Made by a program: the position numbers and the translations under genes. This document shows positions 9,608 to 15,762 of a DNA stretch of 19,093 nucleotides, piece by piece; positions within the stretch are counted from its first letter, which is position 1; the number at the start of each line of letters is the position of its first letter. The notes under the pieces are model-generated. The model had not been told where the DNA came from. It did no database searches and worked only from the letters and a program-made list of their open reading frames with translations. This DNA comes from a virus (taxonomy: Duplodnaviria > Heunggongvirae > Uroviricota > Caudoviricetes), in IMG/VR virus record IMGVR_UViG_2563366800_000003. One strand, given 5' to 3'.

Positions 9608-9722
9608 TGTTGGTTCAGTTGGTTCAGTTGGTTCAATTTGTAAAGAGTATTGTTTTATAAGGATTTTATTCTTTTTATTGAACCAACACTGAACCAACAA
9701 CACGGTATTTTGAACCAACACA
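9608..9722. repeat. Iteron-type origin module: three tandem (G)TTGGTTCA repeats (9608-9637), a 41-bp AT-rich spacer, three inverted TGAACCAAC repeats (9679-9719)
   Basis: Seen directly; sits immediately downstream of the primase-helicase gene, the usual place for a satellite/plasmid ori; an inverted copy occurs at 15638-15762. Confidence 0.6.
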
Positions 9723-10040
9723 ATGTGACTGAATTGATGCGCACAACACCTGGCTGGCATCAGAGAGTGTTTTACGAGACTTTCGTAAAATCCTGTGTAC
9801 AAGGGCGTGACGTTTTTGAAAGTAAGCACTACGAAATTTTCGTAGTTCAAAAAACAGCCTTTGAGAAGTTGTTATGCCTGTTCAGCAAACCATCCGCATA
9901 GCTGATCGCGAATCAAATTACCAATGGAGCCAGAAGCAAGGGCAGAACTGGAAAGCGCCTGCCGTGAAGAGTAATGCGACACCATAAATATAGTTTTTAG
10001 AGTCCATAAAAAACCTGTCAAAACCTGACATACAGAACGA

Positions 10041-10072
10041 TGCCACCAGCTACTGAGTGGTGGCATTTTTTT
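10041..10072 (+). terminator. Rho-independent terminator (8-bp stem TGCCACCA/TGGTGGCA, 9-nt loop, 7 T's)
   Basis: Perfect stem and T-run seen directly at 10041-10072. Confidence 0.6.
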
Positions 10073-10128
10073 GTGCTATTTGTTTCATATTTTGCAATTA
10101 CGATGATGAATATTGCGATTTGTGAAAC

Positions 10129-10152
10129 TATAATAACTGTTGTTTTATACAG
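10129..10152 (+). promoter_or_regulatory. Candidate -10 hexamer TATAAT (10129-10134) followed by a LexA-box-like CTGT-N8-ACAG (10137-10152) upstream of the cargo operon
   Basis: aaCTGTtgttttatACAGtt fits the CTGT-N8-ACAG core of SOS boxes with a mostly AT spacer; flanking bases deviate from the TACTGT…ACAGTA consensus; no convincing -35. Confidence 0.35.
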
Positions 10153-10167
10153 TTCTAAGGGGGCGTT

Positions 10168-10341
10168 ATGGCTATTTCAGTAAAGCCAGTATTGATAAGT
10201 GAGAAGCAAATGGAAGCGATAAAGAAAATTCAGGAGGAGCAGCGTAAAAAATCAGAGGTAGGAGTTGCGCCAACGATCCACGAAATTGCTCGGGGATTAA
10301 TGGATAAGGCGCTGGCTTACACTTTAACTGGACGTGGGTAA
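10168..10341 (+). CDS. Small hypothetical protein (57 aa), first gene of the cargo operon; possibly a small DNA-binding or adaptor protein
   Basis: Strong RBS (AAGGGGGCG) before the ATG at 10168; [57 protein letters not shown]; below the 60-aa cut-off of the ORF track; its stop lies 4 nt before the next ATG. Confidence 0.5.
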
Positions 10342-10345
10342 ATCA

Positions 10346-11782
10346 ATGGCTACGTGGCAACAGGGTATTAATTCTGGTGGTTTTCTGGCTGGCATCGGTA
10401 CGCAAAATGAGAATGCGCCAAAGGCAAGCGACATTAACGCAACGCTTGGTCTGATCCGCGAAAACAATGAACTGGCTCGCTCAGGTGCAAATAACGTTGG
10501 TCTGACCGCGTTACGTGGTCTGGCTGGAGTTGCTGATATTTATAAGCAGCAGCAACAGCAGGAGCGTAAAGCGGCATTCCAGAAAGGTTATGCAGATGCT
10601 TATGCGTCCGGCGACAGGGAGCAGATGCGTAATCTTATTACAGCATTCCCAGAAGAGTTTGAGGAAGTCCGTAAAGGGATGAGTTATGTCGATGATGCTC
10701 AAAGGGATGATTATGGCAATCTGGCGCTCAAAGCACAGGTAGCCTCATCGCTTGGTCCGGGAGCATTTGGCAGGTTCATGATGGATAATGAGCAGGAGAT
10801 GCGTCGTTTAGGTATCCCTCCAGAAACTATTGCTGAAATGCAGGTTAATGACCCGCAGGGCTTCCAGCATTTCGCAGGTAATCTGGCGTTGTTTTCTCTC
10901 GGTCATGAGAAGTACTTCGATATCAAAGATCGAATGGAGGGTCGGGATATTGAGCGTGGCGAGTTGGCAGAGACGATTCGCAGCAATAAAGCTGGGGAAG
11001 GTTTACAGGCGCAAAGCATTGCTGTTAGCCGTGAAAACTCTCTGCGCACTGCTGGAGGTGCTGTTCCTGCATCTGTTAAAGAATATCAATATTTCAACAG
11101 CCTGTCTCCAGAGCAACAAAAGACATATCTTCGTGTTCGAGGCCGTCCTGCTGCTGGCGGGGAGAATGTTGTGCAACTGGCAGATGGTAGAACGGTAACG
11201 GTTGGTCGGAAGCTTCACGGCGCTGGTGCTAATGCGTTCTACGAAGGAATAGACAACGAGGGCAATATGATTCGCGTCCCCGCAAGTTCTATTGCTGCTC
11301 CGGCTACATCGGCAGCTAATGCGCAGAATTACGAAATGAAGAAAGATCTTGATGCAATTTCTGGCGCATCAATTGACGATCTTGGCTTCATGACAGGTAT
11401 TACAGGTTCTTCAGGTTCTTTTGCTCTTGGTGCAGATATTCGTAGCCGGGCATCTGGTGTTGAGGAGAGGAAACTATACAACGCTGCACAGCGAATCATG
11501 GGCAAAATGCAAAATCAGGGGATTGCGGCAGCCCGAGATATGGGGGCATCTGGCATCAACACCGAAGCAGAGGCCAATAGGTATTTTCAGGGTATGCCAA
11601 AGCCTGATTTCTCAAGCCCTGAAGCACTACAACAATCAATGCGCGACATTCAGCAATATACCGACAATTACAACCAGCAATATAACGTTAATGTTGGTAA
11701 ATCTCAGCGGCAGCAATCTCAACCTGCACAGGTATCACAGCCAGCAGCCAGCAGTAACTTTTCTTCACTATGGGGTGATTAA
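10346..11782 (+). CDS. Hypothetical protein (~478 aa; track frame opens at GTG 10334), low-complexity Gly/Ala/Gln-rich, predicted largely helical, no catalytic motif recognised
   Basis: Long ORF with consistent coding character; stop TAA overlaps the next start (TAATG at 11780-11784); N-terminal Gly-rich segment, Q-rich tail (…[19 protein letters not shown]). Confidence 0.8.
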
Positions 11783-14443: not shown

Positions 14444-14467
14444 TTTCGAGACAAGTACGCGCGCGAG
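14444..14467. repeat. Copy a of the TTTCG(A/G)GACAAGTACG(Y)GCGCG repeat family
   Basis: Seen directly; related copies at 14731-14758 and 16120-16150, shorter CAGTACGCGC/CAGTACGCAC variants at 14374-14384 and 14505-14518. Confidence 0.5.
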
Positions 14468-14730
14468 GGGTATCAGTTGCAAAATTTTTTGCAACTGCGT
14501 CCGACCAGTACGCACACGATGGCGGGGGATACCATGAAACTGTTCTCTACATAAGTCAGAGTGGTGGTGATGTGTTGATTATCGGCGTATATGCGCACAG
14601 GACGCGCTATGACAATGTTTTATGCGGGTACACCAATCACATGTATCTGGTGTGATAAATCGCGTTACATGACATCTCATGTTGTGCTGGTGGTTATCAC
14701 GACGTTCTGAATCTGGCTTTTGTCTGATAT

Positions 14731-14758
14731 TTTGCGACAAGTACGTGCGCGTAGCATC
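14731..14758. repeat. Copy b of the GACAAGTACG(Y)GCGCG(CG)TAGCA repeat family
   Basis: TTTGCGACAAGTACGTGCGCGTAGCATC; shares the upstream TCTGATAT motif with copy a. Confidence 0.5.
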
Positions 14759-14779
14759 GACAGCATACACATTGGATAT

Positions 14780-15001
14780 TCATTTTGTGACCAATGCGAT
14801 AAGTAGCGGGATAAGCATTGATAAAATCAACAGGCCGATGATCCACTTTTGATTTTCACTGGCCTTATCTCTATTTTCATCAATCTTATCAATAATTCGA
14901 CGCTCCAAGCCGTGCATATCACCGCGAATGGCAATCATCTCATTGCGAACATCCGAGAAGTGGTTGGCTTGATGTTCAATGTGTGGCGTTCTGCCTTTCA
15001 T
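14780..15001 (-). CDS. Small protein (73 aa) with charged helical N-terminus and a single C-terminal transmembrane anchor; XhlA-like architecture
   Basis: …DKIDENRDKASENQKWIIGLLILSMLIPLLIALVTK; GAGG 9 nt upstream of the ATG; family assignment is by architecture only. Confidence 0.5.
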   Translation of the reverse strand: MKGRTPHIEHQANHFSDVRNEMIAIRGDMHGLERRIIDKIDENRDKASENQKWIIGLLILSMLIPLLIALVTK

Positions 15002-15080
15002 TCCTGATCCTCACCTATCGTCACCACCTGCTGGTGTATAAAGGTATTGGCCCAAGCAGCTTTCCAATGGGCACTCATGT

Positions 15081-15536
15081 TTATACGCTGACCTTACAAT
15101 CAATCACCGCTTTTAACTTTTCAGCATTGCTTCCCTGACGCTTCCACGCGCTGTAAATATCTTTATCCCACGCTTTACCAGCTTTTGTTTGATAGCCTGC
15201 TTCATTGATCCGTTCAGCTATCACACGCCCATTATCAAATCCCTGTCGGATGGTATCGGCAATGATCTTTATAACTGCCGTTTCGTTATATGGCTTTGGT
15301 GGGATGTTCGGCTTTCCGGCAATAAGCGACGCAGCAGCTTTTTCCATGCGCTCCACCAGCCCAAGCATTCGTGAATCAATAGACTTTTCCGGCTGTCCCA
15401 GCTTCATGCGAATCGCATCAACAAGCCAGGAGGTTTTATCCCCTCCAGAAGCGAGAACAGACCGATTAAACTCATCCTGCAATTCAGATGGGATGCGGAA
15501 CGCGACCAGATTAGATTTGCTCATTGCAAATACCAT
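15081..15536 (-). CDS. Hypothetical protein (151 aa) with an N-terminal ribbon-helix-helix-like DNA-binding motif
   Basis: LVAFRIPSELQDEFNRSVLASGGDKTSWLVDAIRMKL fits the RHH (Arc/MetJ/CopG) pattern; the gene is transcribed away from iteron array 2, which lies in its upstream region. Confidence 0.6.
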   Translation of the reverse strand: MVFAMSKSNLVAFRIPSELQDEFNRSVLASGGDKTSWLVDAIRMKLGQPEKSIDSRMLGLVERMEKAAASLIAGKPNIPPKPYNETAVIKIIADTIRQGFDNGRVIAERINEAGYQTKAGKAWDKDIYSAWKRQGSNAEKLKAVIDCKVSV

Positions 15537-15637
15537 ATCAGTGAGTAATATCCATACAGTATACCACTGTATAACACTGTTATGCGCTCAAATATTAGCC
15601 AGAAAATAACGGACCAATCACAAAGCTATCGCTGTGT

Positions 15638-15762
15638 TGTTGGTTCAGAGCTGGGCTGTGTTGGTTCAAAATGAGTTGATGTTGGTTCAATATTTTAGAA
15701 AAAACATAATAAAAACAACGATCTTTACAAATTGAACCAACTGAACCAACTGAACCAACACC
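15638..15762. repeat. Second iteron-type module, inverted relative to 9608-9722: three spaced TTGGTTCA (15640, 15661, 15682), AT-rich spacer, three tandem TGAACCAAC (15733-15759)
   Basis: Seen directly; reverse complement aligns with the first module (same 9-bp unit, AT-rich centre) but with different spacings; lies in the divergent intergenic region between the RHH gene and the perC-like gene. Confidence 0.6.

Follow-up and report, generated by a model that had tools for sequence, protein, structure and literature searches.

Two inverted iteron modules as a putative two-part origin region separated by accessory genes in an EcCIMP1-type phage satellite of Escherichia coli

The virus record IMGVR_UViG_2563366800_000003 from IMG/VR (19,093 bases; the window, throughout this text, is that whole stretch) holds a chromosomal island with two mirror-image arrays of the iteron TTGGTTCA. 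One array, module 1, directly follows the gene of the island primase-helicase (Pri-Rep); the other, module 2, is situated upstream of a gene for a PerC-family regulator. Probably both modules bind the Pri-Rep of the island and together constitute a two-part origin region, the halves of which are separated here by approximately 5.9 kb of accessory DNA. An earlier note, made from the sequence alone, had described a duplicated origin bracketing a cargo region that might be invertible or exchangeable. We regard the arrangement as a new layout of a known type of island origin and not as an invertible cassette.

Two inverted iteron modules

The octamer TTGGTTCA occurs in 12 exact copies in the window versus 0.80 expected, and none of 200 shuffles reached this number. 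Every copy belongs to one of two clusters, 9610-9718 and 15640-15758. The replicase gene, the two modules and the elements adjoining them are as follows.

6827-9583, + strand: Pri-Rep initiator, 918 aa; zinc-ribbon and TOPRIM primase fused to a DUF927 helicase, with a putative C-terminal DNA-recognition region
9609-9718: module 1; tight triple on the + strand (9610, 9619, 9628), spacer, loose triple on the - strand
9602-9656, + strand: outer arm of module 1; AAAAGGTG, three tight copies of GTTGGTTCA (9-bp spacing, 9609-9635) and ATTTGTAAAGAGTATTGTTTT; 55-nt inverted repeat
9636-9678: AT-rich spacer of module 1; 43 nt, 84% AT, presumed DNA unwinding element
9679-9718, - strand: loose triple of module 1; TGAACCAA at 9679, 9690 and 9711, spacing 11 and 21 bp
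9749-9759, + strand: central motif CCTGGCTGGCA, just right of module 1; found between the halves in relatives with contiguous origins
15640-15758: module 2; mirror image of module 1 (loose triple, spacer, tight inverted triple)
15640-15689, + strand: loose triple of module 2; TTGGTTCA at 15640, 15661 and 15682, spacing 21 and 21 bp
15690-15732: AT-rich spacer of module 2; 43 nt, 84% AT, includes the conserved AAAACAA-N5-CTTTACAAAT
15712-15766, - strand: outer arm of module 2; inverted copy of 9602-9656, holds the tight triple (15733-15758)
15733, 15742 and 15751, - strand: iterons of the module 2 tight triple
15759-15786, + strand: conserved TATA-rich block CACCTTTTTGCTTATCTATATAAT with TATAAT at 15777-15782; putative promoter without a -35 box for perC and the downstream genes

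Module 1 starts 25 nt past the stop codon of the primase-helicase gene. Module 2 occupies a 259-bp divergent intergenic region between a gene encoding a 151-aa protein (- strand, 15081-15536) and the PerC-family gene (+ strand, 15796-16077). The relative orientation of the modules is inverted, with both tight triples facing outward. The outer arms (9602-9656 and 15712-15766) are 95% complementary over 55 nt; a second pair of arms (9685-9722 and 15657-15694) is 82% complementary over 38 nt, and alignment of the whole modules yields 81% mean column identity.

The octamer count, the clusters, the three plus three iterons and the 43-nt spacers with 84% AT confirm the two modules where the earlier note had placed them, and both are origin-type iteron arrays, as it held. 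It had further taken module 2 for an inverted copy of module 1, a reading to be abandoned if alignment of the modules revealed only the shared 9-bp unit. The likeness found is far longer, and the 55-nt and 38-nt stretches identify module 2 as a true inverted copy.

Replicase and iteron specificity

The only Pfam domains of Pri-Rep are PF08273, PF13362 and PF06048 (zinc ribbon, TOPRIM and DUF927, respectively). In PDB sequence searches the helicase part matched 8tch, annotated as "Pathogenicity island protein" (E 2.5e-11), and 5dgk. Because of the DUF927 domain and these two matches, Pri-Rep is predicted to belong to the self-loading Rep family of staphylococcal islands (SaPI/Cch type).

Relatives were collected by a replicase-based scan with one genome per species, which produced 77 loci from other species. 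Iterons directly follow the replicase gene in nearly every full-length relative, and the 43-nt length of the module 1 spacer is kept in nearly all of them. The relatives fall into at least seven iteron classes: TTGGTTCA, TGTTGTCT, TAACCCGT, GTCGGTTC, GTCGGGT, TGGGTTA and TTATCCC. Within each class both halves of the origin carry the same iteron. Moreover, the last ~45 residues of the replicase have a motif of their own in each class, co-varying with the iteron across the relatives; for instance, GRGYQRKSPRI is replaced by GRGYQGRVRED between replicases that are otherwise ~80% identical.

When module 2 is aligned across 11 elements from several genera, conservation extends to the iterons with their 21-bp phasing, to the 43-nt spacer length and to AAAACAA-N5-CTTTACAAAT and TTATATATA; the DNA between the iterons varies freely. 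This pattern is, to judge from the alignment, the footprint of selection on a protein-binding array, and both halves are predicted to belong to the island's own replicase.

Arrangement of the two halves in related elements

In 28 relatives both halves form one contiguous block of 250-300 bp with ~12 iterons after the replicase gene. Such a block begins with a tight triple, an AT-rich spacer, a loose triple, a central spacer containing CCTGGCTGGCAG and two or three iterons; it continues with a second spacer and an inverted second tight triple, which is followed by the conserved sequence CAC-N-TTTT-GCTTATATATA. In 12 other relatives the halves are 0.17-9 kb apart, always in the same relative orientation. 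The split layout is also present in the window, in E. coli strain MB10, in the island EcCIMP1 (both modules, 8.5 kb apart) and in a 12-kb circular record, with the tight triples pointing outward. A further 18 relatives have a single module in the DNA available, and for 13 of these 18 the full 10 kb downstream could be inspected. One of the 13 (L006), with eight iterons and a TATA-rich block, amounts to a short version of the contiguous layout.

Next to module 1 the window still has the central motif CCTGGCTGGCA, and in a split relative (L020) the first module is followed by a degenerate vestige of the next iteron; these traces indicate that a formerly contiguous region was split. The simplest history suggested by the sequences is that a contiguous two-part region was pulled apart by intervening DNA, and that this happened more than once. 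The "duplicated ori" of the earlier note stands insofar as there are two origin-type arrays; an ancestrally two-part origin region with separated parts is the better description.

The spacer of the second half depends on the layout. It is AT-rich in all 13 distinct split elements, with a length of 43-54 nt that equals the length of the first-half spacer in most of them, and it is short and GC-rich in 14 of 25 contiguous relatives (hypergeometric p about 5e-4 for split layout versus AT-rich spacer, ignoring phylogeny). A half standing alone thus seems to need an unwinding element of its own. The AT-rich second spacers of split elements suggest that the replicase may assemble, and melt DNA, at module 2.

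Whatever the iteron class, essentially every contiguous or split relative has the TATA-rich block after its second half. In the window, its perfect TATAAT (15777-15782) is located 14 nt before the start codon of perC. A promoter role is ascribed to the block because of its conservation alone; the conservation suggests a putative promoter without a -35 box, whose upstream region would be a predicted replicase-binding array.

Several circular records of 12-22 kb deposited as plasmids carry the Pri-Rep replicon, and one from E. coli (L087, NZ_CP148430.1, 12,152 bp) has both modules intact. These records fit autonomous replication, as far as sequence can tell, and are silent on which module is needed for it. 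L087 and a second record (L088, CP031370.2, 19,229 bp), both deposited as small non-mobilizable circular plasmids, are complete islands with integrase, pri-rep and perC. Satellites of the window type can evidently persist, or at least be assembled, as extrachromosomal circles.

The DNA between the halves repeatedly encodes large virion-internal or DNA-delivery proteins that match the type of helper. In the window (10334-13887) and in EcCIMP1 these are P22 gp16-like and injection proteins. Relatives from Chimaeribacter and Leclercia have tape-measure proteins (PF20155) in this place, and other relatives have ~600-aa SLT-transglycosylase proteins; Fic and P4-type Beta proteins are encountered too. 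The genes for the large proteins in relatives are at the following positions.

L018: 14632-18042
L054: 16228-18912
L020: 14445-16247
L059: 16258-18012

Satellites that bring along an ejection or tape-measure protein of their own merit separate study.

Exchange of the replicase in sister islands

In sister islands of E. coli (L079, L080, L083-L086), pri-rep and module 1 are replaced by the gene of a DUF5906 (P4-alpha-like) primase-helicase. The breakpoint of the swap corresponds to position ~9766 of the window, a few bases to the right of CCTGGCTGGCA. The incoming replicase is accompanied by its own iterons, CCTGTACCACC. These form two clusters (3690-3800 and 4800-4900 in L079) at a distance of 1.1 kb, with a pair of small genes in the interval. 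The swapped elements keep the same cargo and an orphan TTGGTTCA module 2 upstream of perC.

We counted the modules in 5,426 complete E. coli genomes at a coverage of at least 80%: module 1 was found in 366 genomes and module 2 in 516. A copy of module 2 is present in 552 of the 5,426 genomes (about 10%). All 21 sampled genomes with module 1 have a second matching place in the same record, consistent with the arm of module 2.

Six orphan modules were inspected. Two are intact, one has a point mutation in a tight iteron, and three share a 107-bp deletion, by which the third iteron of the loose triple is lost along with the spacer, the tight triple and TATAAT, perC being left intact. This is suggestive of decay of orphan modules that have lost their cognate replicase, and the swap appears to be recent, because the flanks are 96-99% identical. 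The orphan modules (~150 genomes) can serve as a marker of replicase-module swapping between satellite families.

A further motif touches both replicons. CTGGCTGGCA, with at most one mismatch, occurs nine times in the window versus 1.5 expected, mostly on the + strand (e.g., 9750-9759, 10385-10394 and 8247-8256), and one copy coincides with the conserved central motif of the origin. It also follows the iteron cluster of the unrelated DUF5906 replicon (3810-3823 and 3881-3894 in L079). As a guess, it could be a start site for the primase or a site for a host factor.

Comparison with known origins

In the origins described for staphylococcal and Gram-negative islands, two inverted iteron sets flank an AT-rich region just 3' of rep (PMC9371898; PMC6092414). 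Module 1 is similar to them in its position, its inverted iteron sets, its AT-rich center and its DUF927 replicase with a putative C-terminal recognition region. Two opposed iteron sets around an AT-rich region are present in both modules; module 1 lies immediately 3' of the initiator gene, and module 2, 6 kb downstream, does not. The initiator is of the SaPI/Cch Rep type by its DUF927 domain, its matches to 8tch and 5dgk and the co-variation of its C-terminal motif. By these features module 1 is assigned to the origin class of phage-inducible chromosomal islands (PICIs) and SaPIs.

The published descriptions of this class concern one origin with two iteron sets, whereas here a second complete module of the same geometry is found 5.9 kb away in inverted orientation. 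The searchable literature has no description of module 2 or of a family-wide second half with a TATA-rich block; searches on the iteron string and on PICI with iterons returned a single paper, where two iteron sets are described (Fillol-Salom 2018). The classical island EcCICFT073, whose primase is from a different family, likewise has a ~250-bp region of several iteron sets after the primase gene. Island origins have so far been presented as a single compact iteron-AT-iteron unit. In this large family of enterobacterial islands the origin region has two parts with ~12 iterons, of which the second is tied to the TATA-rich block, and the parts tolerate separation by kilobases of accessory genes.

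Functionally, phage P4 comes closest; it has two clusters of the same type-1 iteron several kilobases apart. In the P4 record crr (4291-4590) is directly 3' of the alpha gene, and ori (9086-9809) is between ORF88 and sid, 4.7 kb away. The alpha protein binds ori as well as crr; the latter must be present in cis and can act from afar. P4 and the window are alike in having two separated clusters of one iteron on the same replicon: the primase-helicase gene is immediately followed by one cluster, and the other occupies a regulatory intergenic region between divergent genes. However, P4 alpha is of the D5/DUF5906 type, and the window replicase combines TOPRIM with DUF927; since it lacks the domains of P4 alpha, the window element is placed outside the P4 ori/crr family. 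Further, crr consists of two 120-bp direct repeats and is no mirror image of ori, whereas module 2 mirrors module 1, and the replicase gene lies between the two sites in P4 and not in the window. A strict requirement in cis for both sites is argued against by the 13 single-module relatives with the full downstream DNA.

The P1 incA, F incC and R6K alpha/beta/gamma loci resemble the window in having additional arrays of initiator sites outside the minimal origin, with iterons adjoining a promoter. These replicons use initiators of the RepA or pi type together with the host DnaB, and their control arrays are direct repeats lacking a central unwinding element.

Proposed mechanism and alternatives

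By analogy with the known islands, module 1 would be the canonical origin: on its inverted iteron sets, hexamers of Pri-Rep would form and then open the 43-nt AT-rich spacer, as in staphylococcal islands and EcCICFT073. We infer that module 2 is a second replicase-assembly site of the same geometry, serving the origin and influencing the rightward promoter. It could act as a cis-acting partner of the origin, similar to P4 crr, or as a second site of initiation. Replicase bound to its tight triple, directly upstream of the TATA-rich block, would, in addition, have an effect on transcription toward the right, through perC and the genes beyond it. The inverted repeats around the cargo would then be a by-product of an ancestral palindrome-like layout with outward-facing tight triples and not a recombination device.

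A bolder extension of the two-part origin, which we consider rather unlikely, is that a distance-tolerant two-site origin like that of P4 evolved independently. Here an MCM-like Pri-Rep would bridge halves 0.2-9 kb apart, looping out the genes between them and coupling initiation to expression of the rightward operon, and the center of the origin would be a preferred landing site for cassettes of helper-matched virion proteins (P22-type ejection proteins here, tape-measure proteins in other genera). The system of the window offers a simple model for two questions: can a self-loading MCM-like initiator work at long range, in the way that P4 alpha uses ori and crr, and does occupancy by an initiator control late or accessory genes of a satellite?

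Several observations weigh against a two-part origin. The 13 single-module relatives with 10 kb of downstream DNA indicate that a second half is not universally needed for replication. The GC-rich second spacers in about half of the contiguous relatives imply that this half is not an unwinding site everywhere. A scan with the consensus sigma-70 promoter calls no promoter at module 2, nor at module 1. About 150 genomes keep module 2 without module 1 and the cognate replicase; such retention fits either a function independent of the replicase or a recent swap. Finally, the feature common to the second halves is the tight triple with the TATA-rich block, which favors an operator role.

That role is the core of the main rival, possible though clearly less probable than a two-part origin: module 2 would be an operator only, by which the replicase or another protein controls the promoter of the perC operon, with an inherited origin shape and no part in replication. 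In iteron plasmids, autoregulation classically relies on iterons that overlap promoters. Nearly all relatives, in every class, have a single feature in common in their second halves, the tight triple followed by CAC-N-TTTT-GCTTATATATA, and in the 14 contiguous relatives with GC-rich second spacers that spacer is not meltable. Most single-module relatives lack the TATA-rich block, and their next gene starts ~40 bp past the last iteron, implying read-through transcription. An operator, however, could do without three phased inverted iterons and without an AT-rich spacer of roughly origin length, and both are found in each of the 13 split elements. The -35 region is poor, and the absence of a promoter call counts against an operator as well. 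Module 2 also survives in genomes devoid of the cognate replicase, and the deletion seen in L079-type elements takes away TATAAT with perC intact. The suggestion of the earlier note that the second copy may be a regulatory or auxiliary site is plausible: the TATA-rich block is conserved upstream of perC, and the iterons track the specificity of the replicase.

We find it improbable that module 2 is a locus of negative copy control or incompatibility, which would titrate the replicase or handcuff module 1, like P1 incA, and thereby silence the integrated island. In favor of such a locus, module 2 is a further array of equal iteron specificity beyond the minimal origin, handcuffing in iteron plasmids acts on paired arrays, and the existence of circular plasmid-like forms means that copy number could matter. 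Nevertheless, the island replicates in a burst after helper induction, so that negative control seems less needed, and titration arrays are normally direct repeats without unwinding geometry, whereas module 2 mirrors the origin.

Very little speaks for the proposal of the earlier note that the inverted modules delimit an invertible or exchangeable cassette, the cargo of which would be flipped or swapped by recombination between the 55-nt arms. The arms are 95% identical and do exchange sequence, since at a 3-nt variant arms A/B read GTA/TCG in the window, both arms have GTA in EcCIMP1, and both have TCG in the 12-kb circular record. The pattern is consistent with gene conversion that involves no crossover. 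The cargo between the modules also differs widely among relatives. On the other hand, a synthetic inverted-junction query was covered to at least 80% by BLAST in none of 551 matching E. coli genomes. All split elements inspected (the 12 relatives, MB10, EcCIMP1 and the 12-kb circular record) have one orientation and one gene polarity. Pfam and PHROGs yielded no recombinase or invertase among the cargo open reading frames (ORFs) scanned, the short ORFs in 14325-15081 having been scanned only partly. With no genome carrying the inverted junction, the invertible cassette was rejected as far as fixed inversions are concerned. Exchange delimited by the modules fares no better. The earlier note had named the same cargo without flanking modules as evidence against it, and this is what the E. 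coli elements with replaced replicase and iterons have: their cargo is the same and module 1 is missing. Relatives with contiguous origins also carry variable cargo, downstream of the origin, and cargo variability is therefore independent of flanking iteron modules.

It is equally hard to credit that module 2 has no function and was left behind by a rearrangement, or by two islands recombining: it is indeed unchanged in some elements with a replaced replicase and deleted in others, and single-module relatives exist, but its iterons, spacing and spacer length are conserved across genera while the surrounding intergenic DNA has diverged freely, the two halves co-vary in at least seven iteron classes, and the second match accompanies module 1 in every sampled genome.

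The island and its gene content

Positions ~1021 to 17810 of the window match an island found in many E. coli genomes at tRNA-Thr next to proA. The site is the tRNA-Thr between proA and yagU, and strain MB10 has the island at the same locus. The left end of the island begins at the 3' portion of tRNA-Thr; a tRNA scan of the window revealed no intact tRNA gene. The sequence TCCTATTATC occurs in two exact copies in the window versus 0.01 expected; they are direct repeats, and the same sequence was reported as the attachment core of EcCIMP1 at the same site (PMC11773190). The genes are ordered int, alpA, antirepressor, Ash-family gene, small ORFs, pri-rep, P22 gp16-like gene, injection-protein gene, perC and the gene of a pRiA4b-ORF3 protein, and EcCIMP1 has the same order. 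Pfam, PHROGs and RefSeq annotation detect no capsid, tail or lysis module in the island. Because of the same tRNA-Thr site, attachment core and gene order, the island is identified by sequence as a PICI of the EcCIMP1 type. EcCIMP1 has been validated experimentally: it is mobilized by the P22-like phage Kapi1, with helper-dependent excision, replication and transfer, and the paper makes no mention of iterons or an origin (PMC11773190). In the phage database we found no match to a helper phage and one weak match to a Klebsiella phage. The cargo was annotated with Pfam, PHROGs, the RefSeq annotation of strain MB10 and a terminator scan.

1050-1059, + strand: attachment-site core TCCTATTATC, left copy, at the left island end
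1232-2446: island integrase, the sole recombinase found
9760-15637: cargo between the modules
10168-10341: 57-aa ORF, cargo
10334-11782: P22 gp16-like ejection protein, cargo
11782-13887: 701-aa injection protein, cargo
13906-14325, - strand: 139-aa ORF, cargo
15081-15536, - strand: 151-aa ORF, divergent from perC; kept beside module 2 in many relatives
15796-16077, + strand: PerC-family regulator gene (Pfam PF06069, E 3.7e-30)
17777-17786, + strand: attachment-site core TCCTATTATC, right copy, at the right island end

The cargo has a match to Pfam Inj_translocase (E 3.3e-82), and small ORFs are located between the 139-aa and 151-aa ORFs. Searches in Pfam and PDB sequences gave no match that would identify the 151-aa protein as a ribbon-helix-helix protein. 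Its AlphaFold model is of low confidence at the N-terminus, and a Foldseek fold search had no match at E <= 0.001. One database source names a 76%-identical homologue an "Arc-like DNA binding domain protein", and the predicted secondary-structure pattern of the N-terminus is compatible with a candidate ribbon-helix-helix fold.

Additional sequence features

The DNA left of the island (1-1020) is common to few of the best-matching genomes, and most matches begin at 1021; on its left side the island may abut another insertion. Just inside both ends of the island there is a direct repeat, ATGGGGGTACTT(A/T)TGGGGGTAT, at 1179-1200 and 17694-17715, which may represent arm-type binding sites of the integrase.

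Two RNA families were recognized at the Rfam gathering level on the + strand inside the Ash-family ORF, isrK (4868-4945, 67.8 bits) and C4 antisense RNA (5008-5095, 79.9 bits). This region looks like an antisense immunity RNA region of the P4/P1 type. They are the sole Rfam matches; there is none at either module or in the leader 9760-10170.

Between module 1 and the first ORF of the cargo lies a noncoding leader (9766-10170) with the palindromes TTTTACGAGACTTTCGTAAAA and ACTACGAAATTTTCGTAGT (9828-9846), and the terminator scan found a terminator-like hairpin at 10049-10064. The leader is kept in the elements with a swapped replicase and may serve in packaging or regulation.

Three copies of TTTCG(A/G)GACAAGTACGCGCGCG are present in the right part of the cargo and after perC (14437-14465, 14723-14751 and 16113-16141), and the same sequence is found just upstream of module 2 in a Serratia relative (L060, about 13440-13470). 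Between the start of the 151-aa gene and module 2, a palindrome ACAGTATACCACTGT with a nearby half-repeat is situated at 15556-15570 and looks like an operator; relatives have direct repeats of GTAAGACA in the place of this palindrome.

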